From: Gammaproteobacteria bacterium
Lineage (GTDB): Bacteria; Pseudomonadota; Gammaproteobacteria; DRLM01
DNA: 64,000 nucleotides
Direction: 5' to 3'
NCBI GenBank assembly: GCA_023266095.1
Contig: JAHFRV010000009.1
Coordinates: 471 to 64,470 of the forward strand
Shown: one piece after another, positions 12,733 to 37,438 of the stretch
How the letters are laid out: each line of letters starts with the position of its first letter
Position numbering within the stretch: the stretch's first letter is position 1
Translations under genes and position numbers: made by a program
Notes under the pieces: model-generated
Told to the model about the DNA's origin: nothing
What the model saw: the letters and a program-made list of their open reading frames with translations, nothing else
Database searches by the model: none

Positions 12733-14400
<1,668 letters not shown>

Positions 14401-14541: not shown

Positions 14542-15237
14542 TCACTTCGCGGACAGCGTCGATACACTTGACTCCGCCATTTTTCCCCAGCGCCCGGTAA
14601 ACGGCACAAAGACCACGGGAAGGATGTCGCGGCTGGCGACGGTTCCGTCCGCCGCTTTGGTAATCAGTTTAAGTGATTGGTTGGCGTGAGGCGGTCCCAC
14701 CGGTATCACCAGCTGGCCGCCCGGCCGGAGCTGTGTCAGCAGCGGTTCCGGCACATGGCCGGCGGCGGCGGTGACGATGATGCCGTCGTAAGGAGCATGT
14801 TCCGCCCAGCCGTCGTAACCGTCGGCGGCGCGCACCGTCACATTGAGATACCCCAGCTCGCGCAGGCGCCGCGCGGCGCTCTCGGCCAGTTCGGGAATGA
14901 TCTCCAGCGAATACACCTGTTTCACCAAACGCGACAACACAGCCGCCTGGTAACCCGAACCGGTGCCGATCTCGAGGACGCTGGCACCCGGCCGGGGTTC
15001 CAGCAGGTCGGTCATTAGCGCGACAATATAAGGTTGCGATACGGTTTGTCCGTAACCGATGTCCAGCGGACCATTGTGATAGGCCGCGATGAGATACTCC
15101 TCCGGGACAAAGCGATGGCGCGGCACCGAGCCGATGGCCGCCATCACCCGCGGATCGAGCCGCTGCTTGCCGGTCCACGCCCGCGTCGCGGCCACCTCGT
15201 CCTCGATGTCGCACAGCATCCGCCTTTTGCCATCCAT
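14542..15237 (-). CDS. pcm: Protein-L-isoaspartate O-methyltransferase
   Basis: ...PRHRFVPEEYLIAAYHNGPLDIGYGQTVSQPYIVALMTDLL...VLEIGTGSGYQAAVLSRL... are the canonical PCMT motifs. The start was taken at MDGKRR; an upstream in-frame ATG at 15306 is possible. Confidence 0.88.
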   Translation of the reverse strand: MDGKRRMLCDIEDEVAATRAWTGKQRLDPRVMAAIGSVPRHRFVPEEYLIAAYHNGPLDIGYGQTVSQPYIVALMTDLLEPRPGASVLEIGTGSGYQAAVLSRLVKQVYSLEIIPELAESAARRLRELGYLNVTVRAADGYDGWAEHAPYDGIIVTAAAGHVPEPLLTQLRPGGQLVIPVGPPHANQSLKLITKAADGTVASRDILPVVFVPFTGRWGKMAESSVSTLSAK

Positions 15238-15369
15238 AATCTTCCTCCCCTCCTCAACGGTGGTAGCGGCGCTCGCCGTGAGGGCCGGCCTTTGTATGAT
15301 TATCATAACCCTACTTTCGAACGGCAGGTTTCCCTACCCGGTTTATCTCATGCCGATTCTGCGATTCAT

Positions 15370-15576
15370 GAGCTGATCCACGGGCAGTTGCACGGTGCTG
15401 TAGACGTAACGGGCGGCGTGGAATTCGCACACCACGACAATGCCCTGGCAGAGCCAATCAATGGCTTGTATAAGACTGAATTGTTCCACCGGCGGGCTCC
15501 CTGGAAAATGCGGGAGGCCCGCATGCCACTTAACCCGCTCGTTTTTCAAGAGCCTGGTTTATGGAAGTCTCAATAA
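15370..15576 (+). pseudogene. Degenerate remnant of an IS3-family transposase (OrfB C-terminus)
   Basis: The + frame reads ...GGVEFAHHDNALAEPINGLYKTELFHRRAPWKMREAR.... This resembles the conserved IS3 integrase-core tail DNAxxESFFxxLKxE(L/R)xxRRxFxTREEAR. It has no N-terminal DDE region and no plausible start; it lies in the pcm-ABC intergenic gap. Confidence 0.3.
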
Positions 15577-15680
15577 CCAGATTACAGTCAAGGTCGTCAG
15601 ATTTTAGTGGCTCAGCACCGTATTAACAGACACAAACGCACAAATCATTTACACCTAGCTAAAATTGGTCGACTGCACAG

Positions 15681-17711
15681 TTATTCAACTCGCCCCTCAT
15701 TCCCATATAAGAAGCAATGTACCGTCTGTGTCTCACCGAGCTGCGTAGATTCGGGATATCGCTCCCGACACGGCGCCATCGCATGCGGACACCGCGGATG
15801 AAAATGACACCCTTGCGGCGGATTCACCGGCGAAGGCAGATCACCCTGCAAACGGATGACCTCGCGTTGCGCATCTTCATCAATCGTCGGCACCGCCGAC
15901 AACAGCGCCTGGGTATACGGATGTTTGGGCGTCTTGAGCACTTCTTCCATGGTGCCCTGCTCGACGATGCGGCCGAGGTACATCACCGCCACGCGGTGGG
16001 CGAGGTATTCGACTACCGACATATTGTGGGTGATGAAGAGATAGGCAAGGCCCAGTTCGTCTTGAAGACCTTTCAGCAGATTCAACACTTGCGCCTGTAC
16101 CGACACGTCGAGCGCGCTGGTGGGTTCGTCGCAGACGATGAGCTTGGGATTGACCGCCAGCGCGCGCGCGATGCAGATGCGCTGACGTTGGCCGCCGGAG
16201 AATTCATGCGGATAACGCTGTTTGGCCTCGGCGGGCAGACCCACTTGCGCAAGCAGCTCATCGACGCGCCGGCGGCGTGCGGCGGCGTCGCCGCCGATGT
16301 GTTGCGCCAGCATGCCTTCGGCGATAATGTCGCCGACCCGCATGCGCGGATTCATCGAAGAGTAAGCGTCCTGGAAAATGATTTGCAGTTCGCGGCGGTG
16401 CGGTCGCAGTTGGTGCGTGGACAGCGCGGTGAGTTCCAGGCCGTGGTAACGCACGCTGCCGCCGCTGGGGCGGATCAATTGCAGAATGGCTTTGCCGGCG
16501 GTGGTCTTACCGCAGCCCGATTCACCCACCAGCGCCACGGTGCGGCCACGCTGTAATTCCAGCGAGATGCCGTCCACCGCGCGCGCATGACCGGTCAGCC
16601 GTTTGAGCAGGCCGTGGTGGATGGGAAAATGTACCTTCAAATCGTCCACCTGCAGCAAGGTCTGGTTCGATTCCGCCGCCGGTGGCGCTTGCACGGCTCC
16701 TTCCGCGATTTTCAACGGCGCCGTCGCCGGCTTCGCCACCTCCGGATCATGTAGGTGACAACGCGCCCAGTGTCCCGCTGTTACTTCCAGCCAACGTGGC
16801 GCCAGTACATGACAAGTCGGCCACGCATATTGGCAGCGATCGGCGAAACGGCAGGCATGGAATTCCTGCGCGAGCGACGGCACGCTGCCTTCGATCACCG
16901 CGAGTTTATGGCCGCGTTTGCCGAGGCCGGGCATGGAGGCGAACAGCTTTTGCGAATAAGGATGCAGCGGTCGTGCAAAAAAATCCGCACGCGTCGCCTG
17001 CTCGACGATGTGACCCGCGTACATCACTGCCACTTGATCGGCCATGCCCGCCACCACACCGAGATCGTGGGTGATGAGCAGGATGGCCATGCCCAGGTCT
17101 TTTTGCAGTTGTTGCAGCAGTTCGAGGATCTGCGCCTGGATGGTGACGTCGAGCGCGGTGGTGGGTTCATCGGCGATCAGCAACTCCGGTCCGCCGGCCA
17201 GGGCGATGGCGATCATCACCCGTTGTTTCATGCCGCCCGAGAGTTGATGCGGATATTCGCCGTAGCGCCGTTCGCGGTCGGGGATGCCGACCGCATCGAG
17301 CAGCTCCAGCACCCGCAGGCGCGCCGCGGCGCCGTTCAATTTTTTATGGTGGCGCAAGACTTCGCCGATCTGCTCGCCCACGGTGAACACCGGATTGAGC
17401 GAAGTCATCGGTTCTTGGAAAATCATCGCCAGGTGATTGCCGCGCACCTCGCGCATGTCGTCTTCCGACAGGGCTAGCAGATCGCGGCCGTTAAGCCACA
17501 CTTCACCGCCGAGTTTGCCCGCCGCTTGGGGCGGCAGCAAACGTATCAGCGACAAAGCAGTCATGGATTTGCCGCAGCCGGATTCGCCGAGCAAGGCGAA
17601 GGTTTCGCCGCGCCTCACCTCGAAACTCACGCCGTCCACCGGACGCAAGATGCCGCGCGGTGTCACGAGACGGGTGGTGAGTTGTTTGACGGATAGTAGG
17701 GGTGGCTGCAT
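15681..17711 (-). CDS. ABC transporter ATP-binding protein with two fused nucleotide-binding domains (GsiA/YejF-like; peptide/nickel ABC family)
   Basis: 676 aa. Two full cassettes ([11 protein letters not shown]...[15 protein letters not shown]...ADEPTTALD and [11 protein letters not shown]...[15 protein letters not shown]...CDEPTSALD), each followed by a Cys-containing oligopeptide-ABC C-terminal extension. Confidence 0.85.
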
Positions 17712-17777
17712 CGTTATGTCGCTAGTAGTTTATGCCCTGCCGGTGCGAGTAAGAGTTAATGAAAATTCGTTGCTTTA

Positions 17778-17839
17778 ATCACCCTCGCCCCTGATCCTCT
17801 CCCATTGAGAAGGGGGATGGGAGGCAATGCCGGGGTGAT
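17778..17839. repeat. Nested inverted-repeat (REP/MITE-like) element between the two ABC ATPase genes
   Basis: atcaccc(tcgcccctgatcc)tctcccattgagaagggggatgggag(gcaatgcc)ggggtgat: the inner 7-bp stem is ctcccat/atgggag and the outer 7-bp stem is atcaccc/gggtgat. It lies in a 218-bp gap inside an otherwise tightly packed operon. Confidence 0.35.
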
Positions 17840-17929
17840 GAATAAATCGTAGTGTGGACCGTGGGCCCGACCGAGCGTAGTTACCCGCGCACAGCCCACG
17901 TTACTTCTGTTGCCATATAACACATTCAC

Positions 17930-19621
17930 TTAAAACTTCACCCGCGGTACGGCGGCGAGTAGCTTCTGGGTATAGGCATGTTGCGGGCGGCAGCTGACTT
18001 GTTCGGTCGGACCGCGTTCGACGATTTTGCCGTCGTGCATCACCGCCATTTCGTCGGCGAGGTATTCCACCACGCCGATGTTATGGGTGATGAACAATAG
18101 GGTCAGTGAGCGCTCGCGGCATAAATCCAGGAGGATTTGCAGAATCTCGGCCTGCACCGACACGTCGAGCGCACTGGTGATTTCGTCGCAGACGATGAAG
18201 CGTGGATTCAATACCAGCGCGCGGGCGATGCCGATGCGTTGGCGCTGGCCGCCGGAAAATTCGTGGGGATACCGCCAGAGGTGTTCGGGATCGAGCTGTA
18301 CCCGCAGCAGAATTTGGCGGGCGATCTCCAGACGTTCGTCCTTCGATTCGCCGATGCCGTGCACCGCCATGGGTTCGATCAGCGTATTGGCGACAGTAAG
18401 GCGAGGATTCAGCGACGACACCGGATCTTGAAAGATGATCTGCATGTGGCGACGATAAGGCCGCATCTCTTTGCGGCCTAGGCCGGTGATGTTGTCGCCG
18501 GCGAAACGGACCTCGCCGCCGGTGGCGCCGATCAAACCGAGGATAGCACGGCCCAGCGTGGTTTTGCCGCAGCCCGATTCACCGACCAGCGCGAGGATTT
18601 GCCCTTGCGGTATGCGCATATCGACGTGATCCACCGCTTTGACGTGGCCGATCGTATGTTTGAACACACCCTTCTTGATCGGGAAATAGACCTGTAAGCC
18701 GCGCAGCTCCACCAGGGCTTGCTCGCCATTGAGTTTCGCCGGTGTTTCCGTCGTCTCGGACACGGCGCTGAACAGGGGCGATCGTCGCGCCGGTGGGCGA
18801 GTGCGCGCAAGATTCTCCGGCAAGGCCGCCAGCAATTGCCGCGTGTAGTCGTGTTGCGGCGCGTTGAGCACCTCGCGCAATTTACCGCTCTCGACGATTT
18901 TGCCCTGACGCATCACCGCCAGACGATCGGCCATTTCCGACACCACACCGAAGTCATGAGTGATGAAAAGAATACTGGTGCCTTTGCGCTGTTGCAGGTC
19001 TTTCATCAGTCGCAGTATCTCGGCCTGCACGGTCACATCCAGTGCGGTGGTGGGTTCGTCGGCGATCAGCAGATCGGGTTCGCAGACCATCGCCATGGCG
19101 ATCATCACCCGCTGCCGTTGGCCGCCGGACAAACGATGCGGATATTCCTCGAAGCGTTCCGTCGCGTTGGGTATCTGCACCTGTTCCAGTGCCGCGACGG
19201 CGCGCGCGCGCGCTTCAGCGTAACTTATCGCCGGGTGATGGAGTTGCAAGACCTCCATGATCTGTTCACCGATGGTGAATACCGGATTGAGCGAGGTCAT
19301 CGGTTCCTGAAAGATCATGCCGATCCGCGCGCCACGGATCGCGCGTTTACCCTCTTCCGGCAGGCTCAGCATATCCACGCGCTCGAGACTAGCATCGGCG
19401 CGGCGATGGTCGAACCATATCTTGCCGTCCGGATGGATGGCGATGTCGCGCGGCAACAACTGAATGATGGACAACGCCGAAATGGATTTGCCGCTGCCCG
19501 ACTCGCCCACCAGACAAAAAGTCTCGCCGCGTTCGAGTGTGAAACTCACGCCGTCCACCGCCTTGACGATACGGTCGCCGGCGCGCAAATACGTCTTGAG
19601 GTTTTCTACTTGCAGCAGCAT
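17930..19621 (-). CDS. yejF: Peptide ABC transporter ATP-binding protein, two fused NBDs (YejF-like)
   Basis: 563 aa. LVGESGSGKSISALS...LSGGQRQRVMIAMAM...ADEPTTALD and [13 protein letters not shown]...[15 protein letters not shown]...CDEITSALD. It ends 10 nt downstream of the permease gene. Confidence 0.8.
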   Translation of the reverse strand: MLLQVENLKTYLRAGDRIVKAVDGVSFTLERGETFCLVGESGSGKSISALSIIQLLPRDIAIHPDGKIWFDHRRADASLERVDMLSLPEEGKRAIRGARIGMIFQEPMTSLNPVFTIGEQIMEVLQLHHPAISYAEARARAVAALEQVQIPNATERFEEYPHRLSGGQRQRVMIAMAMVCEPDLLIADEPTTALDVTVQAEILRLMKDLQQRKGTSILFITHDFGVVSEMADRLAVMRQGKIVESGKLREVLNAPQHDYTRQLLAALPENLARTRPPARRSPLFSAVSETTETPAKLNGEQALVELRGLQVYFPIKKGVFKHTIGHVKAVDHVDMRIPQGQILALVGESGCGKTTLGRAILGLIGATGGEVRFAGDNITGLGRKEMRPYRRHMQIIFQDPVSSLNPRLTVANTLIEPMAVHGIGESKDERLEIARQILLRVQLDPEHLWRYPHEFSGGQRQRIGIARALVLNPRFIVCDEITSALDVSVQAEILQILLDLCRERSLTLLFITHNIGVVEYLADEMAVMHDGKIVERGPTEQVSCRPQHAYTQKLLAAVPRVKF

Positions 19622-19631
19622 GGCGTCGCGT

Positions 19632-20837
19632 TCACGCGGTTTTTTTGAGATAGGGATCGATGGCGTCGCGCATCGCTTCGCCGATCAAGTTATAGGCGAA
19701 CACCGTGAGAAAAATCGCGCCGCCGGGAAAGGCCGCCATCCACCAGTTGAAGGTCGCTGCCTGCACCGCTTGATTGAGCATTTGGCCCCACGATGGATCG
19801 TCGACCAAGCCTAAGCCGAGAAAACTCAAGGTCGCCTCGGCAAGAATGGCGGAGGCCACGCCGAAACTCGCACCCACCAATATCGGTGCAAGGCCGTTAG
19901 GCAGCATGTGGCGGAACAGAATGGAACGCAGCGGCAGACCGCAGGCGACGGCGGCCTGCACGAATTCCTGCTGCCGCAATTTCAGAAATTCCGCGCGCAC
20001 GAAACGGGTGTAGCCGGTCCAGCCGGTGAGGCCGATGATCACCATCATCATGTAGAGGTTGGCGCCGAAAAAGGCAACGAAGGTCAGCAGCAAAAACAAG
20101 GTCGGCACCGCCTCGAAGGTCTCTACCAACCGCATACCGATCATATCGACCACGCCGGAGAAATAACCCATCAGTCCGCCGATGAAGACGCCGATCACCA
20201 GGGCGATGCCGGTTGCGACGAAACCGATGCCCAGCGCGATGCGCGACGCGTGTATCATCCGGCTCAACACGTCGGCGCCGTTTTCGTCGGTGCCCAGCAG
20301 ATGCGGCCGCGCCGGATCGCTGAGCGGCGCTTGCAGGCCGGTTTCGCCGGCGTCACGCTGATAATCCTTGGGTGAATAGGCGATCGGGGTGCGGACTATC
20401 CAATCGTAACGCCCCGCCGCTTCCGCTTCACGATACTGTTCGTAGATGGTCAACTGGGGCGGCGAAACCACCCAATAACTCACCAGACTGGCGGTCAGCG
20501 CGAGCAAGGTGAAGATCAGCACCTTGTAACGGAACGCGACGCGCACGAAAGCCAGTACCAGCGCGGCGGCGAAGATCACCAGCAGACTCACGTCGCCGGG
20601 GGTCAAGGCCCGCAACAACGGACTGTGGAGATTCCCGCCTTCACTCACCAACAACGGATGACTGTTGGCGAGCAAGGGCGCGAATACCGCGACCAAGACC
20701 AGCAGGCCTATCCACGCCAGGCCGATACGGGCGCCGAGTTTGAGATACACCTCCCGCAGCATCTGTGCGCTGTAACTGCGGCGTACCGGTCCCGCCGCCG
20801 TTGCATCCGTGTTCGCCGCCGCGAGTGTCTCACTCAT
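19632..20837 (-). CDS. yejE: Peptide ABC transporter permease (YejE/DppC-like) with N-terminal extension
   Basis: 401 aa, multiple TM helices. The C-terminal half carries the binding-protein-dependent permease EAA-like loop (FVQAAVACGLPLRSILFRHMLPN). It overlaps the upstream permease by 8 nt. Confidence 0.8.
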   Translation of the reverse strand: MSETLAAANTDATAAGPVRRSYSAQMLREVYLKLGARIGLAWIGLLVLVAVFAPLLANSHPLLVSEGGNLHSPLLRALTPGDVSLLVIFAAALVLAFVRVAFRYKVLIFTLLALTASLVSYWVVSPPQLTIYEQYREAEAAGRYDWIVRTPIAYSPKDYQRDAGETGLQAPLSDPARPHLLGTDENGADVLSRMIHASRIALGIGFVATGIALVIGVFIGGLMGYFSGVVDMIGMRLVETFEAVPTLFLLLTFVAFFGANLYMMMVIIGLTGWTGYTRFVRAEFLKLRQQEFVQAAVACGLPLRSILFRHMLPNGLAPILVGASFGVASAILAEATLSFLGLGLVDDPSWGQMLNQAVQAATFNWWMAAFPGGAIFLTVFAYNLIGEAMRDAIDPYLKKTA

Positions 20838-22212
20838 AACTCACCCGCGGATCGGCGATGGCGTAACAGATGTCGGCGATGAGATAGCCGGCCAAGGTCA
20901 ACAGGCCGCTGATCAAGGTCAAGGACAGCAGCAACTCGCGGTCGCGGGCCTGCACCGCTTCCACCGCCAACTTGCCCATGCCGTCGATGCTGAACAGGCT
21001 TTCGACGATCACCGAACCGCCCAGCAGGCCCGGCAGCAAACCCGCCGACACGGTGATCAGCGGCAATAAACTATTGCGAAACACATGCCGCCACAACACA
21101 TGTTGTTCCGAGGCGCCCTTGGCGTGGGCGGTGCGGACGTAGTCCGCCAGCAGATTTTCCAACACCGCGCCGCGGGTGAGTTTGGCGAGAAAAGCGAAAC
21201 CGCCGTAGGAAAGACACAGCACCGGCAGGGCCAGATGCCAGATACGGTCCAGCAAAAAGCCGCGCACGAATTCACCTTGCGCCAGATTGGCGGCGATGGC
21301 CACGCCGAGGATGAGGCCGGCCGCGGCCATGAAGGCGACGCGCAATCCGCGAAAATCCATGTAGCCGATGGCGCCCAAAGTCACCGCGATCAGCACCGCC
21401 AGCAAGCCTTGAATAAACCACGTCGCCTCGCCAGGCAGGGCATGGGCCATGGCGATGCCCAGTGCCGCGCCGATGGCGCTCATCACCGTCGTGCGCAGCC
21501 GCACGCCGCCGCGCAGCGCCAAGGCGGTCAACAACAGCGTGCCGGCGATCAGGCAGCCGAATAACAGCACCACGTCGCTCACAGAACTCCAATGCGGCAG
21601 GAACGGCATGTCCAGCGCTTCACGCTGACTGAGGCCGGCGGTGGGGAACCAGTGCCAGTATTGATTGCTGGCGAAAAAGCCGATCAGCAACACGCCGGCG
21701 AGCATGGTGGGGATCGACCACAAGGTCAGCATGCTCACGCCCGACACTACGTCGAAGGGTTTGCCGCGCTCGGTGGCCGAGTGCACGCCGACGGCGATGG
21801 CGATGAGATAGATGATGGGAACCGACAGCAGATTGAGCAGTAAGGTCACCGGCACGCGTTCGGTCATGAGATCGGTGACCGGCCGGCCGTAGCGGAAACT
21901 GATACCGAGGTCGGAACCCTTCATGAAGGAAAAGCCGCTGATCTCGTTATTCTCATCGAGGGTGAAGCCGATCGGCGAGGCATTGTTCAACCAACGCAGG
22001 TATTGCACCGGCGCCGGATCGTCGAGACCGTAGATGCGGTTGTAATAATCCTCCATCGCCTTCTTGGCCTGCGGATCGAGATTCTGGCCTTCGATCAAAC
22101 TCTGTGCGCTGATACCGCCCGGCGAGGCCGCCATCACCACGAATACCACCAGGGTGATCCCCAACAGAGTGGGGATCATCAACAATAGTCGTCGGATGAT
22201 ATAGGTGTGCAT
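20830..22212 (-). CDS. yejB: Peptide ABC transporter permease (YejB/DppB-like)
   Basis: 460 aa. N-terminus MHTYIIRRLLLMIPTLLGITLVVF is typical of DppB/OppB/YejB permeases; YVRTAHAKGASEQHVLWRHVFRNSLLP is the EAA loop. Confidence 0.8.
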   Translation of the reverse strand: MHTYIIRRLLLMIPTLLGITLVVFVVMAASPGGISAQSLIEGQNLDPQAKKAMEDYYNRIYGLDDPAPVQYLRWLNNASPIGFTLDENNEISGFSFMKGSDLGISFRYGRPVTDLMTERVPVTLLLNLLSVPIIYLIAIAVGVHSATERGKPFDVVSGVSMLTLWSIPTMLAGVLLIGFFASNQYWHWFPTAGLSQREALDMPFLPHWSSVSDVVLLFGCLIAGTLLLTALALRGGVRLRTTVMSAIGAALGIAMAHALPGEATWFIQGLLAVLIAVTLGAIGYMDFRGLRVAFMAAAGLILGVAIAANLAQGEFVRGFLLDRIWHLALPVLCLSYGGFAFLAKLTRGAVLENLLADYVRTAHAKGASEQHVLWRHVFRNSLLPLITVSAGLLPGLLGGSVIVESLFSIDGMGKLAVEAVQARDRELLLSLTLISGLLTLAGYLIADICYAIADPRVSYE

Positions 22213-22229
22213 GACCGAAGCGGCGAACC

Positions 22230-24101
22230 TTACTGCCGGTACTTTTGTTCGTTGGCCGGCACGAACACCTCCAGCGGCACCCGGCCCAGATTCAGGCCGA
22301 CTTTGGTGATTTGCAGATTACGTATCCGTTTATCGATGAAAACCAGGCTCTGGCGCCGCATCAGGAAAGTGTAAGGCTGATCCTCATGCAGTATCCGCTC
22401 GGCCTGCTGCCACAGCGGCATGCGGGTCTTTTCGTCGACGCTGGCACGGGCCTTTTCGATCAACTGGTCGAGCTTGGTGTTTTTATACGAAATGAAATTA
22501 TCACCGCCGTCGGCAATCTGGCTGCTATGAAAGATTTGATAGATGTCGGTCTCGAGGCTGCTGGTCCAGCCGAGGGTGATGGCGTCGAAATCGCGCTGCT
22601 TTAGCAAATCGATCATCACCGACCACTCGGTGGGCTTGGGCACCAGTTTGACGCCGGCCCGCGCGTAGAGGTCTTTGAGGAACAGCACCACGCGGCGGGT
22701 GTCTTCGTTGTCCTGGAAGAACACCAGTTCGAAGTCGAAGGGCCGGCCCTGGGCATCGTCCAAAATGCCATCGCCGTTGCGGTCGATGTAACCGGCCTCG
22801 CGCAACAATTGCTTGGCCTTGGTGAGATCGTAGGGATGTGGCGTGAGACTTTTATCGTGTTGCGTGCTGCGCGGGCTGAAAGGACTCACCGCGACTTCGC
22901 CATAACCCAGCATGATTTCCTCGATGACGCGCTGGCGGTCGGTGATATAAGTCATGGCCTGTCGCACCCGTTTGTCAGCGAAGCGGGTAGGCTTGCCGTC
23001 GCGCTGTTGATTCCAGGCGATATAGTTGTAGCCGGCGGTGGGACTCATGTATTCGAAATGCTGGGTGCGTTTGATGAAGTCGGGATCATCAAGCAAGGTT
23101 TGGTATTCACGCGGCCGCGCGCCATAGGTGTCGATCTCACCGTTGCGGAACGTGGTGAGGCGCGCCGCGTCGTTGGCGATGACCTTCCACAACAGCCGAT
23201 TGAAAGGCGGCTGCACTGCGCCCCAGTAACGCGGATTGCGTTCCAATTCCACCATGCCGATATCCGGCGTCCAGCCTTTGGGATCCTTGAGCCGATAAGG
23301 CCCCGAGCCCAGCAACAGACCTTTGGACGTATTGAAGCTGTCCGGCTTCTTCAAATAGGGTTCGTAAAAATGCCGCGGCATGATCGCCATGCCGCCGGCC
23401 AGGGCCAGGCTCTCGAAATACGGTTCTTTGAATTTGAACACCACTTGATAAGGATCGACGACCGTGACCGAGGCGATTTTTTCGTAATAGGCGCGTTCCC
23501 GCGGCGCATTGATGGCCGGGTTCATCATGAAAGTGAAGGTGAAGGCGACATCGTCGGCGGTGAGTTCCTTGCCGTCGGAAAATTTCACGCCTTTGCGCAA
23601 TTGAAAGGTGAAGGTCAGGCCATCCTCGCTCACCTGCCATGACTCGGCGATCAAGCCCAGCCATTCGAGCGTTTCGGGATCGCGGGTCAGCAAGGATTCC
23701 TGAATGTAACTTTGCACGTCGGCGGCATAAGCATCGGAAGACACCAAGGGGGTAATGGTCTTCAAGCCCACGGAAAAGGCTTCCACCAACCAATCACCGT
23801 TTTGATAACCCGGCATTTGACTGGCCGCGTAGGCACGGCGGAAGGCGGCCGGCACCGGACCGTTATCGCCGCCGCCCACCGCGCCCAGCGCGACGGCGCC
23901 GCTGCGCAGACTTTTTTCGAGGGTGTTGATCGCACCGCGCAAACCGCGGATATCGGCGGCCTGCTCTTCCATGGTCTGCTGCATCTGCGCCAGCTTACTC
24001 CATTGCCGGTCGACCATGTACATCGCCAGCACCACCACGATCAGTAGGACGGCAAGAAAGCTGAAGAGAAAAAAATCTTTGAAGGTGAAGCGCCGTTCCA
24101 T
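22230..24101 (-). CDS. yejA: Family-5 extracellular solute-binding protein (YejA-like), with membrane-anchored N-terminus and coiled-coil linker
   Basis: 623 aa. The N-terminus has one TM helix (FFLFSFLAVLLIVVVLAMYMV) then a charged helical ~90 aa stretch instead of a cleavable signal peptide. The remainder matches the SBP_bac_5 fold (DPETLEWLGLIAESWQVSEDGLTFTFQLRKGVKFSDGK...). Confidence 0.75.
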   Translation of the reverse strand: MERRFTFKDFFLFSFLAVLLIVVVLAMYMVDRQWSKLAQMQQTMEEQAADIRGLRGAINTLEKSLRSGAVALGAVGGGDNGPVPAAFRRAYAASQMPGYQNGDWLVEAFSVGLKTITPLVSSDAYAADVQSYIQESLLTRDPETLEWLGLIAESWQVSEDGLTFTFQLRKGVKFSDGKELTADDVAFTFTFMMNPAINAPRERAYYEKIASVTVVDPYQVVFKFKEPYFESLALAGGMAIMPRHFYEPYLKKPDSFNTSKGLLLGSGPYRLKDPKGWTPDIGMVELERNPRYWGAVQPPFNRLLWKVIANDAARLTTFRNGEIDTYGARPREYQTLLDDPDFIKRTQHFEYMSPTAGYNYIAWNQQRDGKPTRFADKRVRQAMTYITDRQRVIEEIMLGYGEVAVSPFSPRSTQHDKSLTPHPYDLTKAKQLLREAGYIDRNGDGILDDAQGRPFDFELVFFQDNEDTRRVVLFLKDLYARAGVKLVPKPTEWSVMIDLLKQRDFDAITLGWTSSLETDIYQIFHSSQIADGGDNFISYKNTKLDQLIEKARASVDEKTRMPLWQQAERILHEDQPYTFLMRRQSLVFIDKRIRNLQITKVGLNLGRVPLEVFVPANEQKYRQ

Positions 24102-24463
24102 TATTTATGTCCAAATAAAGTCGATGGGCCTAGCGTACCTTGTCTCGCTGCGCGCGCCGCGCCGCAATAATAGACGTGACTCGTACCATCCTCATGGCAT
24201 GATCGCGCCCGCAACCGCGGATGCCCCTCCCTCACGCAGCGCGTTTCATTCTAGCAATAAGCCTTTGTTTTATCTACCGGCGTAAAGTGCGAGGAAATCC
24301 CTCTTGCATGTCGCTGCTATGCTCGCACCGGATGCTGCTATCCATAATGGTTTCTGTCGCCTATTTAAGACTCCGCCGTCACAGGCTCATGACTTCATGC
24401 CTTGCGGGGCTTATGGTAATCTGCTGGCCACGACTACATCGAATAAGACCAAAGGATGGACGT

Positions 24464-25246
24464 ATGGGATTTCTACAAGGCAAACGCGCGCTGATCGTCG
24501 GCGTCGCCAGCAACCGCTCCATCGCCTGGGGCATCGCCCAGGCCATGCACCGCGAAGGCGCCGAGCTGGCCTTCACCTATCAAAACGAAAAGCTGCTGTC
24601 ACGGGTGGAAAACGCCGCGGCGGAATGCGATTCTCAAATCGTCCTGCCCTGCGACGTGGCCGAGGACAGCCAGATCGACGCGATGTTTGAAAAGCTCGAC
24701 GACTATTGGGACCATCTCGACATCATCGTCCATTCGGTGGCCTACGCGCCGCGCAACGAGCTGGAAGGCGATTATGTCGACAGCACCACCCGCCAAGGTT
24801 TCATCACCGCTCACGAGATCAGTTCCTACAGTTTCACCGCCCTGGCCAAGGCCGGGCGCAAGATGATGGCCGGCCGCAACGGCGCCCTGCTCACCTTGAG
24901 TTATCTCGGCGCCGAACGCGCCGTGCCCAACTACAATGTGATGGGCCTGGCCAAGGCCAGCCTCGAAGCCAACGTGCGCTACATGGCGCAAAGCCTCGGA
25001 CCCGAGGGTATCCGGGTCAATGCCGTCTCGGCGGGGCCGATCAAAACTCTCGCCGCCGCGGGTATCAGCGATTTCCGCAAAATGCTCGAGCATGTCGCCC
25101 ATCAATCGCCGATACGGCGCAACGTCACTATCGAGGAAGTCGGCAACGCCGGTGCCTTCCTCTGTTCCGACCTGGCCTCGGGTATCAACGGTGAAATTCT
25201 CTACGTGGACGGCGGCTACAACACCGTCGGCATGAGTATCTCTTAA
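24464..25246 (+). CDS. fabI: Enoyl-[acyl-carrier-protein] reductase (NADH) FabI
   Basis: [44 protein letters not shown]...SIAFAPR-like...Y-x6-K ([20 protein letters not shown]) is highly characteristic of FabI. RBS aaagga lies upstream of the ATG at 24464, which is internal to ORF 24221..25246. Confidence 0.93.
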
Positions 25247-26699: not shown

Positions 26700-28610
26700 T
26701 TACAGCTTATCGGGATAACGCTTGATATCGGCCTTGGCCTTGAGCGATTTCACATAAGCCTGAAACTCACTTTCAGCCCTGCCGCGCACCAGGGTTTCCC
26801 TCGTGCTCTGCTTGGATGCCCCGTCCACACCGGCGGGATCGCCGTCCTTCACCTCATAAACCGCCAGCACCACGAAATCGCCCGTCGGCAGCGATTTGCC
26901 ACCGAACAACGGCTTGCCGGGCAAAGGCCGCTGCAAACGAAAGGCCTCGTCGATGATCTCCGGATTGACTTCCGCCGCCCTCCGTCCCACCAGGCCAGGA
27001 CGGACCCAACTGAGTTTCAACTGGGTGGCTGCTTCGAGCATGTCCTCGGCTTTATCAAGGCGGCTCAATAAGGCGCGACCCACTTCTTCGGTCTTTTTCC
27101 TGGCCAGCTCAGTACTTAATATCTGGCGTATCTCTTCACGCACTTGTTCCAGCGGCCGCACCGCCTCGGCTTGGTGTTCCTTGATCCGCAACACCACCTC
27201 GTGGTCGGAAGCCAACTCGATGGCCTCGCTGTTATTGCCACGCAGCAACACGTCATCGCCAAAAGCGGCGGCACGTACTTTGGGATGGCTGGCGATACCC
27301 GAACCCTGCTCCCGGGTAAACAAACCCGTGCTGCGTATCGGCAGATGCAAGGCCTCCGCTGCCACGGTGAGATTATCCGGATTTTCAAAGGTCAGATTAT
27401 AAAGTTGTTCGGCCTGCGCGAAATAGCGTTCTTCGGCGCGCTGACGTTGGAGATCTTGCTCCAATTGCGCACGCACTTCTTCGAAAGGTTTGGACTGACC
27501 GCCGCGCACGGCTTCGAGCTTGATGATGTGAAAACCGAAAGCGCTACGCACCGGCTCGCTCACTTGTCCCTCGGTCAAGGCAAAGCTGGCCTCTTCGAAG
27601 GCTTTATCCATCGCGCCACGACTGAAAAAGCCCAAGTCACCGCCGTTTTGCGCAGAGCCGGGATCTTCAGAATATTGACGGGCCAAATCGGCGAAGGACT
27701 CGCCTTTGCGCACCCGCGCCAAAATCTCTTGTATCTTGGTGCGCGCGGCGTCGATTTGCGCTTGCGGCGCATCGCTGCCCACCGAAATCAGGATATGCCG
27801 CGCCTGACGTTCCTCGGGGACCGAGAATTCGCTCTTGTGCTCTTCGTAACGCTGGCGCAAGGCCTCTTCGCTAATCGGTTCGCCGCCGGCGAGATTGGCC
27901 ACCGTCAATTCGATATAATCGACGCTCACTTGTTCGGGGGTGTGAAACTTTTCACGGTTATCCTCGTAATAGCGTTTTATCGCTTGCTCATCAACCCGCG
28001 CTTCCGCGCGATATTGAGCGACCGGTACAATCAGATATCCCAAATCGCGACGCTGCTCGCGCAAACGGATCAAGGCATCGACCTCGGGCTGGGTGACGAA
28101 GGTGCTATCCATCACGCCCTGCCGCAGCTGCTGGAGCAAGATGTCACCTCGAATCGCCTGCTCGAAACCTTTGACCGTCAAACCTTGCGAACGCAGCAGA
28201 TTATTGTAGAGATCTTTGTCGAATTGCCCGGCGTTTTGCAGTTCCGGAATGGAGCGAATATAAGTCGCGACGCGGGTATCGCCGACCTGCATGCCGCTCT
28301 GCGCCGCGTTGAGCACCAGCACCTCACGATCGATCATGCCTTCAAGCACGTCATTCTTCATGCTCTTTTCGTCGAACATCGCCGGATTGAAATTAGCGCC
28401 CAACATGGCCTGCAGACGTGCGCGCTGCTGCTGGTAGGTTTGCTGGAATTGCGTTTCGGGAATCTCTTTGCCGTCCACCACCGCGACATTGACCGAAGCA
28501 TCGGGACTGAGATATTCCTGTATGCCCCATAGCGCAAAAGTCGCGATCAGAAAAATAACTATGACCCAGGCCACCCAGCCTTGAGCACGTTCGCGGATGA
28601 ATTCAAGCAT
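26700..28610 (-). CDS. ppiD: Periplasmic chaperone / peptidyl-prolyl cis-trans isomerase PpiD
   Basis: MLEFIRERAQGWVAWVIVIFLIATFALWGIQ N-terminal anchor, a SurA-like domain and a parvulin domain (ARHILI...GGDLGFF...GFHIIK). Conserved position after hupB as in the enterobacterial tig-clpPX-lon-hupB-ppiD region. The start is internal to ORF 26700..28715. Confidence 0.85.
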   Translation of the reverse strand: MLEFIRERAQGWVAWVIVIFLIATFALWGIQEYLSPDASVNVAVVDGKEIPETQFQQTYQQQRARLQAMLGANFNPAMFDEKSMKNDVLEGMIDREVLVLNAAQSGMQVGDTRVATYIRSIPELQNAGQFDKDLYNNLLRSQGLTVKGFEQAIRGDILLQQLRQGVMDSTFVTQPEVDALIRLREQRRDLGYLIVPVAQYRAEARVDEQAIKRYYEDNREKFHTPEQVSVDYIELTVANLAGGEPISEEALRQRYEEHKSEFSVPEERQARHILISVGSDAPQAQIDAARTKIQEILARVRKGESFADLARQYSEDPGSAQNGGDLGFFSRGAMDKAFEEASFALTEGQVSEPVRSAFGFHIIKLEAVRGGQSKPFEEVRAQLEQDLQRQRAEERYFAQAEQLYNLTFENPDNLTVAAEALHLPIRSTGLFTREQGSGIASHPKVRAAAFGDDVLLRGNNSEAIELASDHEVVLRIKEHQAEAVRPLEQVREEIRQILSTELARKKTEEVGRALLSRLDKAEDMLEAATQLKLSWVRPGLVGRRAAEVNPEIIDEAFRLQRPLPGKPLFGGKSLPTGDFVVLAVYEVKDGDPAGVDGASKQSTRETLVRGRAESEFQAYVKSLKAKADIKRYPDKL

Positions 28611-28746
28611 GATCGAGAGGCTCTCCCTCGTCGTTGTGAGTCCGGTGCGCGCCAGGGCGCCACTCCAAAGACGGGTATTGTATACACAGCGCGTTATAAA
28701 TGAAAAAGGGCACACCGTTTGAGTGTGCCCTGTTCAGTTTTGCAAT

Positions 28747-28823
28747 ATGGCGGAGTGGACGGGACTTGAACCCGCGACCCCCGGCGTGACAGGCCGGTAT
28801 TCTAACCAGCTGAACTACCACTC
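28747..28823 (-). tRNA. tRNA-Asp (GTC)
   Basis: rc: GGAGTGGTAGTTCAGCTGGTTAGAATACCGGCCTGTCACGCCGGGGGTCGCGGGTTCAAGTCCCGTCCACTCCGCCA. Cloverleaf with anticodon loop CTGTCAC. Confidence 0.9.
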
Positions 28824-28840
28824 CTAAATCGTAAAACTTT

Positions 28841-28916
28841 TTGGTGGGTGCTGAGGGGATCGAACCCCCGACATTCGCCGTGTAAAGGCGACGCTCTACC
28901 AGCTGAGCTAAGCACC
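28841..28916 (-). tRNA. tRNA-Val (TAC)
   Basis: rc: GGGTGCTTAGCTCAGCTGGTAGAGCGTCGCCTTTACACGGCGAATGTCGGGGGTTCGATCCCCTCAGCACCCACCA. Anticodon loop TTTACAC. Confidence 0.9.
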
Positions 28917-28947
28917 CCAGCTGCCACCCACCCCTAAGGGCGGGCCG

Positions 28948-29220
28948 CTATTGTACGGCGTCCTTGAGTCCTTTACCAGCCTTGAATCCAGGAATCTTGG
29001 CCGCCTTGATATTGATGGTTTCACCAGTCTGGGGATTGCGTCCGGTGCGGGCTTCACGCTGACGTACACTGAATGTACCAAAGCCTACCAAGGTGACTTG
29101 ATCGTTGCTCTGCAATGCCTTGGTGATAGAGTCAACCAGTGCGTCCACCGCGCGGCCAGCAGCCGCTTTTGAAATGTCTGCCGACTCCGCAACCGCGTCG
29201 ATCAATTCGGATTTATTCAC
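28948..29220 (-). CDS. hupB: DNA-binding protein HU-beta
   Basis: [36 protein letters not shown]...[44 protein letters not shown], 90 aa HU fold. Confidence 0.93.
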
Positions 29221-29465
29221 CCTTCACTCTCCTCGTTAGCTCTATCTACGCTGATGCCTTATCACACAGCACGCGTCGTAATCAAAAAGGCACCGCTGCG
29301 CTTGAGGCGCAATTTATACATCCCGCCTTCAAGCCTGTCAAGCCGATGGCGTATTTTGTCAGGAAAAATTTTTGTTAAATTAACTACAAACAAATTACAA
29401 ACACAACGCAGGCATTGCATAGCGCACCGTATATATGCTTGCGTTATTTATTAATAGAGTGATCG

Positions 29466-29495
29466 ATAAAAAACAAATGGGCGCCTAAGGCGCCC
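29466..29495 (-). terminator. Rho-independent terminator downstream of lon
   Basis: Minus strand: stem gggcgcc / ggcgccc (29479-85, 29489-95) with loop tta, followed by AUUUGUUUUUUAUC (rc of 29466-29478). Confidence 0.7.
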
Positions 29496-29515
29496 AGTCG
29501 CTTAGCTCACTCCCA

Positions 29516-31960
29516 TTAATGCGCTCGAATATCGCTGCCTTTTTTTCCTTTCGCCGATTTCTTCTCTTCTGCCGCCGGAACTGGCGCCTTGGTGGCTACG
29601 GCAACGAGCGGTTGCGGCATATTTAGCAGTGCGATTTGCAAGACTTCATCAATCCATTTGACCGGCTTGATCTCCAAATCTTGCTTGATGTTGTTGGGAA
29701 TCTCGGTGAGTTCGCGTTGATTCTCCACCGGGATCAACACCGTGCGGATACCGCCGCGATGTGCAGCCAGCAATTTTTCCTTCAAACCGCCGATGGGCAA
29801 CACTTCACCGCGCAGCGTGATCTCACCGGTCATCGCCACATCGGCCCGTACCGGGATACCGCACAGAGCCGACACCAGGGCCGTGCACATGCCGATACCC
29901 GCGCTGGGACCGTCCTTGGGGATCGCGCCTTCCGGCACATGGATATGCACGTCGTTCTTTTGGTAAAACTCCGGATCGATACCGAGCACCGTCGAACGGC
30001 TGCGCACCACGGTCATCGCCGCCTGCACCGACTCTTGCATGACCTCACCCAGTTGCCCAGTGGTAGTGAACTTGCCCTTGCCGGGCACCACCGCCGCTTC
30101 GATGGTGAGCAAATCACCGCCCACTTCGGTCCAGGCCAAGCCGGTGACTTGTCCAATGGCGTCGCGTTCCTCGGCGCGGCCGTAGCGGAAACGTTTCACA
30201 CCCAGGTATTTCTCCAGATCCTTGCCCTTGACGGTGATCTTCTTGGCCACCGGCTTGAGCAGTATTTCCTTCACCACCTTGCGACAGATCTTAGCGCATT
30301 CACGCTCGAGGTTACGCACGCCCGCCTCGCGGGTGTAATAACGCACGATATCGCGCATGGCGCTTTCGGTAAGAGTGATTTCACTCTCCTTCAAACCGTT
30401 GGCCTTGACCTGCTTCGGCACCAGATAACGCATGGCGATATTGACCTTCTCATCCTCGGTGTAACCGGAGATGCGGATGACTTCCATGCGATCCAACAAC
30501 GGCGCCGGAATGTTGAGGCTGTTGGCGGTACACACGAACATCACATCGGAAAGATCGTAATCGACTTCCAGGTAATGATCGTTGAAGGTGCTGTTCTGTT
30601 CGGGATCCAACACCTCCAACAACGCCGACGCCGGGTCGCCGCGGAAGTCCTGCGACATCTTGTCCACCTCGTCGAGCAGGAACAGCGGATTGCGCGTACC
30701 CACCTTGGAGAGGTTTTGAATGATCTTGCCGGGCAAGGCGCCGATGTAGGTGCGACGATGACCGCGGATCTCGGCCTCGTCACGCACGCCGCCGAGGGCC
30801 ATGCGTACGAACTTGCGATTGGTGGCGCGGGCGATGGACCGACCCAGCGAGGTTTTACCCACGCCCGGCGGCCCCACCAGACACAATATCGGGCCCTTGA
30901 GTTTATCGACCCGGCTCTGCACCGCGAGGTATTCCAGTATCCGCTCTTTGACCTTCTCCAGGCCGTAGTGGTCTTCTTCGAGCACGGTCTCGGCGCCCGC
31001 CAGCTCGTGACGAATCTTGGTGCGCTTCTTCCAGGGCACGCTCACCATCCAGTCGATGTAATTGCGCACCACGGTGGCTTCGGCCGACATCGGCGACATC
31101 ATCTTGAGTTTGTTCAACTCGGCCTTGGCCTTGGTCTTGGCTTCTTTGGGCATGCCGGCTTTGTCGATGCGCCGCGCCAAATCCTCCACTTCATTGGGCA
31201 CGTCGTCCATCTCACCCAATTCTTTTTGGATGGCCTTCATCTGTTCGTTGAGATAATACTCGCGCTGGCTCTTTTCCATCTGGCGCTTGACGCGGCCGCG
31301 GATGCGTTTTTCGACCTGCAACAAGTCGATCTCCGATTCGAGGATGGCCATAAGTTTCTCGAGGCGCGCACGCACACTCTCGATCTCGAGGATGCCTTGT
31401 TTCTCCTCGATCTTGAGCAATAAATGAGCGGCGATGGTATCGGCCAAGCGGCCCGGATCATCGATGCCAGCCAGCGAAGACAATATCTCCGGCGGGACTT
31501 TGTTGTTCAGTTTCACGTATTGATCGAACTGGCCGAGGATGGCGCGCATCAGCACTTCCGATTCACGGTTTTCGGTGGGCAACATACTGATCGGACTGAT
31601 CTCGGCGTAAAAAAATTGGTCGGTCTCGTGTAATCCGGTAATGCGGGCGCGATCAGTCCCTTCAACCAGCACCTTGATGGTGCCGTCCGGCAGCTTCAAC
31701 AATTGCAATATGCTGGAAACTGTGCCGACGTCATAGATGTCCTCGGCCTGCGGATCGTCCACCGCGGCACTGCGTTGCGCCACCAACAGTATCCGTTTAT
31801 CCCCTTCCATGGCCGATTCCAAGGCCCGTATCGATTTCTCCCGGCCCACGAAAAGGGGAATGACCATATGGGGATACACCACCACATCACGCAGCGGCAG
31901 GACGGGAATCGTTGCCGAAGATCCTGGGGGTACAACCGTATTTTCGCTTTGATTCTCCAT
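29516..31960 (-). CDS. lon: ATP-dependent Lon protease
   Basis: MENQSENTV...[27 protein letters not shown] (LON N-domain), AAA+ Walker [12 protein letters not shown], and the proteolytic Ser-Lys dyad region ([17 protein letters not shown]). The start is internal to ORF 29516..32023. Confidence 0.95.
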
Positions 31961-32204
31961 TATGGAGTACCTCTCTTTGAATGACGCCCGCACCGACCTC
32001 GACTCATCATAGAGCGAGGCCACGAATCCATAAAGAAATGATAGTCACAATACCGCCCCTTGTCTGTCCCTAATTGACGCGTCTCCATTACTATGACTAT
32101 CGACCGGGCTCCACGAAGTCTTGATGTCGAAAAGGCAACGTTCATATAGATGTGGCCGCATTCGAGTAAGTTCAAGCTGGCTACTGCGGTACTTTTAATC
32201 AGGC

Positions 32205-32232
32205 ATAAAAAAGCCGCCCTTATGGGGGCGGC
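32205..32232 (-). terminator. Rho-independent terminator downstream of clpX
   Basis: Minus strand: stem gccgccc / gggcggc (32213-19, 32226-32) followed by UUUUUUAUGCC (rc of ataaaaaa at 32205-12). Confidence 0.7.
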
Positions 32233-32278
32233 GGTATCTGGTGAAATAACGTCGGGAACCCAGGCTTCAGCCCGGCAT

Positions 32279-33565: not shown

Positions 33566-33709
33566 AAAACTAACCTCGTACGTACTACCGGTTCCTTTGC
33601 CCTCAGAATGCAGCTTTCAGGGCCAAGCTGCAAGTTTTTTCCTAATTCTTTCATCGGCGGCGCGCCGTTAATCTTCAACTTTGCTAGCGTGGAAACGGGC
33701 GCCGGGCAA

Positions 33710-34342
33710 TTACTCTTTCAACTCCTTGCGGGATTCCAACACGCCATCAATGATGCCGTATTCTTTGGCTTCTTTAGAACCCATGAAGTTGTCCCGGTCG
33801 GTATCCAAACGGATCTTCTCAAGCGGTTGCCCGGTATGTTTGGCCAAAATATTATTTAAACGTTCACGAATCAATAATATCTCGCGGGCGTGGATATCGA
33901 TGTCCGAGGCCTGACCTTGGAATCCGCCCAAAGGCTGATGAATCATCACCCGCGAGTGAGGCAGGCAGTAGCGCTTGCCCGCGGCACCGCCAGACAGAAG
34001 CAACGCGCCCATGCTGGCGGCCTGGCCGACACACAAGGTGCTGACGGCGGGTTTGATAAATTGCATGGTGTCGTAGATCGCCATACCCGCGGTTACCGAG
34101 CCTCCCGGTGAATTGATGTACAGATGGATGTCTTTGTCAGGGTTCTCGGATTCCAGAAATAACAGCTGCGCCACTATCAGGTTGGCCATGTAATCTTCCA
34201 CCGGTCCCACCAGGAATATCACCCGCTCTTTGAGCAAGCGTGAGTAAATATCGTAAGCTCGCTCGCCACGGGCGGATTGCTCAACCACCATGGGTACCAG
34301 ATTCAGCGCTCTGGTGGGCATTTTTTCACCGTTGTACATCAT
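33710..34342 (-). CDS. clpP: ATP-dependent Clp protease proteolytic subunit ClpP
   Basis: ...[57 protein letters not shown]..., catalytic Ser in [11 protein letters not shown]. Confidence 0.95.
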
Positions 34343-34494
34343 ATCGGCTTATTTCCCTGTTTAATAATCAAAGAGGTGAATCTCACCCAGTTATCCTTAA
34401 ATAACAATTACTTTTATTTTCAAATCCTTAATATGCTTTCTTCAAGCTAAAAATGTTATCCGCGAACGCATCGCCCCCAGCTCACCGTTTACTG

Positions 34495-35751: not shown

Positions 35752-35838
35752 GATCCTCAACCCTCATCTCTAAATTAATATATTCAGCTAGTTGCGACGA
35801 GCTTCGATGAGTCGGCATTAACTAGTATTCACTGCGAC

Positions 35839-37298: not shown

Positions 37299-37315
37299 GC
37301 AACACAACTTGAAAG

Positions 37316-37392: not shown

Positions 37393-37438
37393 ATTAAACC
37401 CGTTCGCGAACAGCGCGCGCGCATCATATCACGAAGAT

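Follow-up and report, generated by a model that had tools for sequence, protein, structure and literature searches.

The usual picture of an ATP-binding cassette (ABC) importer is a single translocator served by its own pair of nucleotide-binding domains (NBDs). Among the peptide importers, Cys284, Cys290, Cys297 and Cys315 of Escherichia coli DppD bind a [4Fe-4S] cluster that is needed for assembly of the complex, which oxidants dissociate (PMC12136057), and the same source cites Yang et al. (2024) for the finding that Mycobacterium tuberculosis OppD needs its Fe-S-cluster domain for function. Tethered substrate-binding proteins (SBPs) are standard in Gram-positive bacteria and mycobacteria (PMC12136057), and shared ("multitask") NBDs have been established for other type I importers (PMC7658222). 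We describe here an operon of the PepT (Opp/Dpp/Nik) superfamily in a 64,000-nucleotide stretch of DNA from a Gammaproteobacteria bacterium (GenBank assembly GCA_023266095.1, contig JAHFRV010000009.1, positions 471 to 64,470), called the window below, with positions counted from its first letter. By its predicted proteins the region encodes a complete, uncharacterised PepT importer, which we call type A, with its own Fe-S-free motor (ATP1), plus a second motor (ATP2). We put at roughly 45% the probability that ATP2 energises, in trans, a permease pair like that of a second kind of importer (type B, below) encoded outside the window.

The operon lies on the minus strand and runs head to tail as five long open reading frames (ORFs), all at the positions given by an earlier, sequence-only reading of this DNA. 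Domains were assigned with Pfam, equivalog and subfamily cut-offs were taken from NCBIfam, and relatives are named by locus labels (L004 and so on). The SBP (22230–24101, 623 residues) matches SBP_bac_5 (PF00496) at 1.2e-85, with 288 bits vs a cut-off of 32.4. It is followed by permease B (20830–22212, 460 residues), which is OppB-type and has BPD_transp_1_N and BPD_transp_1 domains, and by permease C (19632–20837, 401 residues), which is OppC/YejE-like with a long N-terminal part, has BPD_transp_1 and OppC_N domains, and begins with an 8 bp overlap of the end of permease B. ATP1 (17930–19621, 563 residues) comes next and, after a gap of 218 bp, ATP2 (15681–17711, 676 residues). Both are fused two-NBD ATPases; ATP1 has two ABC_tran domains and a truncated oligo_HPY, and ATP2 has two ABC_tran domains and two full oligo_HPY. 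Each of the four NBDs retains a canonical Walker A, Q-loop, signature, Walker B and H-loop, and the sequence-only reading was right to place two intact fused ATPases behind a single SBP/permease set. The family-5 (cluster C) SBP, the OppB and OppC permeases (PF00528 plus PF19300 or PF12911) with their EAA loops, and the ATPases that combine ABC_tran with oligo_HPY identify the predicted system as a member of the PepT superfamily, and not as a YejABEF orthologue.

The earlier label, a YejABEF-like importer of the microcin C kind, survives only at the superfamily level, as every equivalog cut-off is missed. ATP1 aligns over its full length to GsiA (599 bits, cut-off 1077) and YejF (555.6 bits, cut-off 834), and ATP2 scores 622 vs 1077 bits and 610.8 vs 834 bits against the same two models. 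Permease B reaches 182.6 bits against YejB (cut-off 445) and permease C 161.1 bits against the YejE-type model PRK15021 (cut-off 439); the Opp4B and Opp4C models score higher, and the NCBIfam matches of permease C all stay below their cut-offs. The best NCBIfam match of the SBP is Opp4A (201 bits vs 650), and its closest solved structure is Bacillus subtilis AppA (1xoc, 3e-68); against 7z8e, a 610-residue chain that we take to be YejA-like, the match is only 6e-22 and covers residues 113–390. Nothing in the analysis supports calling the system a microcin or peptide-antibiotic importer.

The two ATPases share about 51% identity over their NBDs. ATP1 has the architecture of YejF, GsiA and M. tuberculosis DppD (MtbDppD), with the Cys4 (Fe-S) columns wholly absent, and is the ATPase cognate to the type-A permeases. 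ATP2 is built like a fusion of the DppD-DppF/OppD kind: its halves align full-length to DppD/OppD and DppF/OppF, and among solved structures the nearest is that of M. tuberculosis OppD (Rv1281c, 8j5q_D, 2e-155), followed by E. coli DppF/DppD and OppF/OppD. After each of its NBDs stands the pattern C-x5-C-x6-C-x17-C, which has the spacing of the DppD cluster ligands and fits the Fe-S ATPase criterion C-x5-C-x6-C-x16/17-C, and two [4Fe-4S] sites are predicted. On these comparisons ATP2 is not a duplicate of ATP1. When the window is compared with L007, L008, L087 and L088, the ratio of nonsynonymous to synonymous change (dN/dS) is 0.10–0.13 for ATP2, at dS of 0.4–1.0, and 0.05–0.16 for the other four operon genes. 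Apart from a damaged copy in L017, which is broken and has lost Cys residues, each ATP2 linked to a type-A operon retains the catalytic motifs and the full set of eight cysteines. A dN/dS near 0.1 together with the retention of catalytic and Cys4 motifs indicates that ATP2 is a functional gene under purifying selection and not debris.

We therefore looked at how ATP2 is distributed among related operons. A scan of species-level genomes with the type-A SBP gave 80 loci which, with further loci from targeted look-ups, provided 45 distinct operons that are assessable, that is, have enough downstream sequence to judge. ATP2 directly follows ATP1 in 17 of the 45, so that the extra ATPase is not the peculiarity of one genome that the sequence-only reading had made of it. 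Another 27 have no ATP2, and in the last, L019, the type-A module is inverted and ATP2 is still found beside mltD. Every type-A permease pair with an adjacent ATPase has one of the ATP1 lineage, and ATP2 in the place of ATP1 was seen in 0 of 45. Four sets of type-A SBP and two permeases (L038, L050, L079 and L082) have no ABC ATPase within 5–8 kb downstream. The trees made here are neighbour-joining trees without bootstrap, which do not fix the number or direction of module switches; in that of ATP1, genomes with both ATPases turn up in several clades, and genomes with a single ATPase nest among them. Carriers of both ATPases comprise at least 17 species-level lineages, mostly uncultured sulfur-cycling gammaproteobacteria whose record labels include Ca. 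Tenderia, Chromatiaceae, Ca. Thiodiazotropha and Thiotrichaceae; examples are L006 (GCA_040752855.1), L008, L015, L035 and L047. Ectothiorhodospira and Nitrosococcus have the ATP1 form only. The order SBP-permease-permease-ATP1-ATP2 is thus a recurrent and selected operon architecture. At the rearranged locus (L019:7798-16162), the four type-A genes have been flipped as a block where they stand, between fabI and ATP2, while ATP2 keeps its position and orientation next to mltD; the ATP2 reading frame there is interrupted, in a locus that also holds 191 masked or gap bases.

The junction between the two ATPase genes is tight in most of these genomes. Among the 17 operons, 13 have a 1-bp overlap or a spacer of 3–19 bp, two have 44–60 bp, and a junction of 173–218 bp is found only in L007 and L008, which form one clade with the window. 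The spacer itself (17712–17929, minus strand) is likewise kept only in L007 and L008, relatives that are 92–95% identical to the window, and in the sister clade of L087 and L088, whose ATP2 is 80% identical, the genes overlap by 4 bp. Because the sister clade overlaps and most other lineages nearly abut, the spacer is a recent, lineage-specific insertion into a formerly overlapping, translationally coupled junction. The nested palindromic element that the sequence-only reading had seen in the gap is there: inverted-repeat and fold analysis gives two GC-rich hairpins, one at about 17860–17900 and a nested one at 17775–17842, although the spacer as a whole folds no better than shuffled sequences (z = -0.75). 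No promoter- or terminator-like site was found in the gap, and no T-run follows a hairpin. No second copy of the element exists within the 64-kb window, even with up to 3 mismatches allowed, and the spacer has no Rfam match; on these results and the z value we reject a repeated mobile element (REP), a known RNA and an intrinsic terminator as identities for it. Remnants of deleted type-B genes were also sought in the gap, and low-stringency tblastn gave nothing above noise. The role of the two hairpins is probably limited to modulation of mRNA stability or read-through between the ATPase genes. The sequence-only reading had named two observations that would together count against its account of the second ATPase, a grouping of ATP2 with a different transporter and an independent transcription of its gene. 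The first is what we find (below); the second is unsupported, given the co-orientation of the genes, the gap free of promoter and terminator sites, and the junctions in 13 of the 17 operons, where the two genes overlap or are no more than 19 bp apart.

The transporter with which ATP2 groups is type B. Its operon, found in beta- and gammaproteobacteria, runs fabI-SBP (~735 residues, lipoprotein-like)-permease (325 residues)-permease (~470 residues)-ATP2-mltD; in sister genomes it occupies the same fabI-mltD slot as type A, and the position of ATP2 just before mltD is identical. Type-B operons with an ATP2-lineage ATPase are present in L004, L005, L090, L091, L172 and L173, and P0267, P0284, P0291 and P0182 are canonical type-B operons in genomes other than those with type A and ATP2. 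A metagenome scan with type-B permease C gave 80 loci, 63 of which have room downstream. An ATP2-lineage ATPase directly follows permease C in 55 of these and lies a little further downstream in 4; 2 are ambiguous, with only about 1–1.5 kb of downstream sequence, and the remaining 2 (L167 and L169) have no ATPase within 8 kb. Since permease sets without a nearby ATPase occur in both types (L038, L050, L079 and L082 of type A; L167 and L169 of type B), ATPases of the PepT-type family must act in trans in some genomes. What lies downstream of the L169 set are fatty-acid beta-oxidation genes, and of the L167 set dsbC and xerD-like genes. Three of the 55 loci (L128, L135 and L141) have fused ATPases of 543–616 residues that belong to the ATP2 lineage and have lost one or both Cys4 domains, from which it follows that the Fe-S domains are not indispensable in this lineage. 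We had taken these three for type-B permeases with an ATP1-like ATPase, and withdrew that inference when a per-NBD comparison placed them in the ATP2 lineage. The 737-residue type-B SBP of L004 (L004:5381-7594) has both a lipobox-like N-terminus (…LGAC…) and a C-terminal hydrophobic segment at residues 700–718 (Kyte-Doolittle 2.31); an anchor at each end is one possibility, and some other role for the C-terminal helix is another.

Outside its own type-A-linked clade, the nearest relatives of the ATP2 in the window are the type-B ATPases of L004 (77% identity) and L005 (75%), which have the same length and the double Cys4. It is 80% identical to the A-linked copy of L087 and 58–67% identical to the other A-linked copies, and in the neighbour-joining tree (no bootstrap) it nests among B-linked sequences. 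The window organism is closer to L004 and L005 by FabI (94% and 80%) and PpiD (72% and 54%) as well, and ATP2 phylogeny tracks organismal relatedness and not operon context. No alignment column separates the 18 A-linked from the 40 B-linked ATP2 copies, so there is no sign that ATP2 has been re-tooled for type-A permeases. A mosaic, recombinant ATP2 was considered and rejected, as bins of 85 residues are uniformly nearer the sister-genome copies with no switch along the gene. We also do not favour an ancestral tandem of type A and type B with differential loss, as the two modules stand side by side in no locus among about 45 of type A and about 63 of type B. The simplest picture of the slot is that ATP2 is the constant element, upstream of which type-A modules (with ATP1) or type-B SBP/permease modules alternate, with repeated loss of ATP2 from type-A operons.

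Given this shared slot, ATP2 could be an evolutionary leftover: a type-A module would have replaced the type-B SBP and permease genes, and the ATPase gene left behind would be in the course of being lost. ATP2 does stand in the slot of the type-B operon and at the same place before mltD, it is missing from 27 of 45 type-A loci, the L017 copy is broken and has lost Cys residues, and in the lineage of the window the 218-bp insertion has disrupted the coupling to ATP1. We nevertheless find such a leftover scarcely credible in view of the dN/dS of 0.10–0.13 over dS of 0.4–1.0 within A-linked genomes, and of a full-length frame with intact motifs in 16 of 17 lineages at divergence down to 58% identity. 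The sequence-only reading had offered a "regulatory paralog" as an alternative, in which ATP2 would have no transport function and might, for example, be a soluble Fe-S or redox-sensing member of the ABC proteins, gating or titrating either the type-A translocator or another target. Its two conserved Cys4 domains and its co-expression with a transporter that already has a motor would suit such a role, but all of its ATP-hydrolysis motifs are canonical, no sequence feature sets the A-linked copies apart, and the same lineage supplies the only ATPase of type-B importers and is hence a bona fide transport motor. We regard a regulatory ATP2 as highly improbable.

The other proposal of the sequence-only reading, that the extra ATPase is an orphan energiser for another permease pair, agrees with the grouping of ATP2 with another transporter's ATPases and remains the leading one. 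ATP1 would drive the type-A translocator, and ATP2, an orphan in cis, would work in trans on type-B-like permeases elsewhere in the genome. Four lines of evidence favour it. First, in more than 100 loci each ATPase lineage goes strictly with one type of permease. Second, ATP2 never replaces ATP1 and is absent from 27 of the 45 type-A loci, and so is dispensable for type A. Third, ATP2 shows no sign of re-tooling in the type-A context. Fourth, permease sets without an ATPase exist in both types. In L019, too, the type-A module has been inverted while ATP2 stays next to mltD.

Several findings weigh against a motor that acts in trans. No type-B SBP or permease was found in the 64-kb window, where tblastn with the L004 proteins finds only the type-A permeases (29–38% identity), or within 10 kb of any locus with type A and ATP2. 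Nor is there a B-type SBP (at least 64% identity) on the same contig as any such locus, including the 482-kb contig of L008, a 95%-identical relative. The 3.0-Mb contig of L005 has type B and, among the matches listed, no type-A SBP, and together these observations hint that the type-A and type-B modules are alternatives, one of which takes the place of the other in a genome. The overlap or near-abutment of ATP1 and ATP2 implies co-expression with the type-A transporter, which would be odd for the motor of another system. Finally, the EAA coupling regions of type-A and type-B permeases are alike (DYVRTAxAKG..E..VL..HV..N...P and Q.A.A.G......I..RH.LPN), which means that docking of ATP2 on type-A permeases might need no special adaptation.

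The same findings give some weight to an alternative in which ATP1 and ATP2 both dock on the type-A permeases, either under differing redox, oxygen or iron conditions or jointly for optimal flux. It would be served by the co-orientation of the genes, which in 13 of 17 lineages have a stop/start overlap or are separated by 19 bp or less, by the absence of type-B genes nearby and the hints of mutual exclusion, by the likeness of the EAA loops, and by purifying selection on ATP2 inside an exclusively A-linked clade (the window vs L007, L008 and L087). E. coli DppBCDF needs its [4Fe-4S] cluster and falls apart on oxidation (PMC12136057), and an Fe-S-free spare motor would fit life at a redox interface; there is also a precedent in B. 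subtilis, where FrlP and MsmX both energise FrlONM (PMC12632257). However, no type-A locus has kept ATP2 and lost ATP1, and ATP2 stands alone behind type-A permeases in 0 of 45 loci, so that ATP2 apparently cannot replace ATP1; 27 of the 45 do without ATP2 altogether; and ATP2 has no residues specific to the type-A context, the pairing of lineage and permease being otherwise strict. It is possible, though we are doubtful, that the locus encodes one importer with two interchangeable motors whose uptake is tuned by redox or iron status, in a polymorphic fabI-mltD slot where modules are swapped upstream of a constant Fe-S ATPase. We continue to favour action of ATP2 in trans on type-B-like permeases.

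Two features set type A apart, the N-terminus of its SBP and an insertion in permease B. The SBP begins with a cytoplasmic tip, MERRFTxKD, and continues with a hydrophobic helix (residues 10–30), MYMVDRQW with a helix to about residue 66, a Gly/Ala linker to residue 86 and the family-5 domain (about 100–623); its single hydrophobic segment by Kyte-Doolittle analysis covers residues 12–30, at 2.92. Conservation was measured as mean pairwise identity over 16 orthologues, which are 66–87% identical to the window protein, and is 71% in the tip (residues 1–9), 57% in the uncharged hydrophobic stretch (10–30), 63% in the following helix (31–56), 30% in the Gly/Ala-rich linker (57–86) and 72% in the domain (101–623). 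The N-terminus has no indels, and residues 10–30 are free of charge in all 16 sequences. Of 82 full-length orthologues, 81 have the motif [MLIV][YF]x[VIL]DRQW immediately C-terminal to the hydrophobic stretch. When residues 1–100 were searched against a library of 1.84 billion representatives, 135 clusters were found, in which the module is the N-terminus of the same SBP family only; these are mostly contig-end fragments, and two low-complexity matches fall outside the family. An AlphaFold2 (AF2) model from 16 sequences (mean pLDDT 52), used for secondary structure only, gives a continuous helix at residues 7–66 and disorder at 67–84.

These features make it likely that the SBP has a signal anchor, that is, that it is tethered to the inner membrane through an N-terminal helix that is not cleaved off, since a discarded signal peptide would not hold the tip as conserved as the mature domain. 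The sequence-only reading was thus borne out in its tethered binding protein, with an N-terminus that behaves as a retained anchor; its "~90-aa helical linker" is in fact a helix of about 35 residues (31–66) followed by the poorly conserved Gly/Ala-rich stretch. An ordinary Sec signal peptide cut after residue 26, which would release a soluble periplasmic SBP with a helical extension, seems unlikely. In its favour, residue 26 is always A, S or T and residue 24 always V, L or I, as the -3/-1 rule asks, the next residue is M, and the n-region is positively charged. But the uncharged run is 21 residues long without an indel in any orthologue, it has no polar c-region or helix breaker, and AF2, at low confidence, makes residues 7–66 one unbroken helix; the tip (71%) is about as conserved as the mature domain (72%), and MYMVDRQW is kept in 81 of 82 orthologues. 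A literature search for transmembrane-helix tethers in Gram-negative bacteria brought up only lipid-anchored SBPs and no account of a conserved helix tether like this one.

Permease B has an insertion of about 145 residues (~178–323), with three to four hydrophobic segments that DppB/OppB lack. Its alignment to M. tuberculosis DppB (8wd9_B) splits accordingly into residues 3–177 and 324–459. The protein has 9 hydrophobic segments, and its length of about 460 residues, insertion included, is conserved across the type-A family. The insertion could be a docking site for the transmembrane helix of the SBP.

Expression of the operon may start from a candidate sigma-70-type promoter on the minus strand at 24248–24276 (TAGATA-17-TAGAAT with an extended -10 TG), a consensus match that is located some 147 bp before the start of the SBP gene, inside the divergent fabI-SBP intergenic region, and is the sole promoter-like site on that strand within 15300–24500. 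The divergent neighbour is a fabI-like enoyl-ACP (acyl carrier protein) reductase gene (24221–25246, plus strand; adh_short_C2, 5e-90). Its ORF is over-extended at the 5' end, as the Pfam match begins at residue 94 and orthologues have about 260 residues, so that the real intergenic region between the divergent fabI and SBP genes is about 350 bp. The operon occupies a conserved chromosomal slot, ppiD-(SDF)-fabI-[importer]-mltD-gloB-methyltransferase-rnhA-dnaQ, and the window matches the left-hand synteny. Pfam identifies, over 26700–35760, lon, then tRNA-Val and tRNA-Asp, then ppiD, SDF and fabI; ORFs further on are taken to be tig, clpP and clpX from their length and position alone, and a four-tRNA cluster (Lys, His, Arg, Pro) is found at 37223–37756. 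We presume that this synteny resembles Pseudomonas PA1800-PA1816, with a YejABEF-like npp operon in the fabI-mltD slot. Downstream of ATP2, genes for a protein-L-isoaspartate methyltransferase and an ABC-F type ATPase (12733–14400 and 14542–15306) replace the mltD-gloB of most relatives, and the right-hand side of the slot is rearranged in this genome.

Taken together, the window holds what we predict to be a conserved PepT operon of five genes, in which the SBP has a helix tether, one permease is expanded and the two fused ATPases differ in architecture. If ATP2 serves permeases encoded elsewhere, it is a shared motor in the peptide/nickel family that sits in another importer's operon, and would to our knowledge be the first such case. 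If it serves the type-A permeases instead, the operons constitute a natural experiment on the role of [4Fe-4S] domains in Opp/Dpp ATPases, a question raised only lately by the OppABCD and DppBCDF structures, and interest in the locus would rise should motor swapping on one translocator prove true. With either outcome, the type-A family would offer a clean example of a helix-tethered SBP in diderms, with a near-invariant juxtamembrane motif and an extra-helix permease as its potential docking site.

How, then, does the locus compare with systems already described? It resembles YejABEF and the Pseudomonas aeruginosa importer NppA1A2BCD, which take up microcin C and peptidyl-nucleosides, in its SBP of about 600 residues, its longer permeases and one Fe-S-free fused two-NBD ATPase. 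The Pseudomonas npp genes, we presume, lie in the same fabI-mltD neighbourhood. Unlike YejABEF, type A has a transmembrane-tethered SBP, the 145-residue insertion in permease B and a second ATPase, and it misses all of the cut-offs. E. coli DppBCDF and OppBCDF are alike in the Cys spacing, the C-x5-C-x6-C-x17-C of ATP2 being that of DppD; they differ in that their ATPases are separate proteins (fused in ATP2) and their SBPs soluble, and in that no permeases of the type that goes with ATP2 stand beside it in this genome. Of the type-B importer, ATP2 is by orthology the ATPase itself, and the window has a complete type-A module in place of the type-B SBP and permeases.

Mycobacterium tuberculosis provides relatives of both motors. 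OppABCD has in OppD (Rv1281c) a fused two-NBD ATPase that is the best solved relative of ATP2, and MtbDppD is, like ATP1, a fused ATPase without the Fe-S domain. OppD has one Cys4 motif and ATP2 has two, one after each NBD; the mycobacterial transporters have a single ATPase gene each, whereas here there are two. The SBPs of OppABCD and DppABCD are membrane-tethered too, but as lipoproteins, in contrast to the transmembrane helix of type A in a Gram-negative organism.

The sugar and Amadori-product importers of the MsmX type belong to the CUT1-type family. MsmX provides the precedent for an ATPase that serves permeases encoded elsewhere (PMC7658222), and FrlP with MsmX on FrlONM that for two ATPases on one importer (PMC12632257). 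The MsmX-type ATPases are single-NBD homodimers, usually encoded by stand-alone genes, whereas ATP2 is a predicted PepT ATPase of the fused heterodimer type and lies inside another importer's operon. Tethered SBPs occur as lipoproteins in some Gram-negative bacteria, and for the type-A SBP the nearest counterpart is lipidated MetQ of Neisseria meningitidis (PMC8416018), which likewise stays attached to the membrane of a diderm bacterium; its anchor is a lipid, and that of the type-A SBP would be a transmembrane helix with its conserved tip and juxtamembrane motif.

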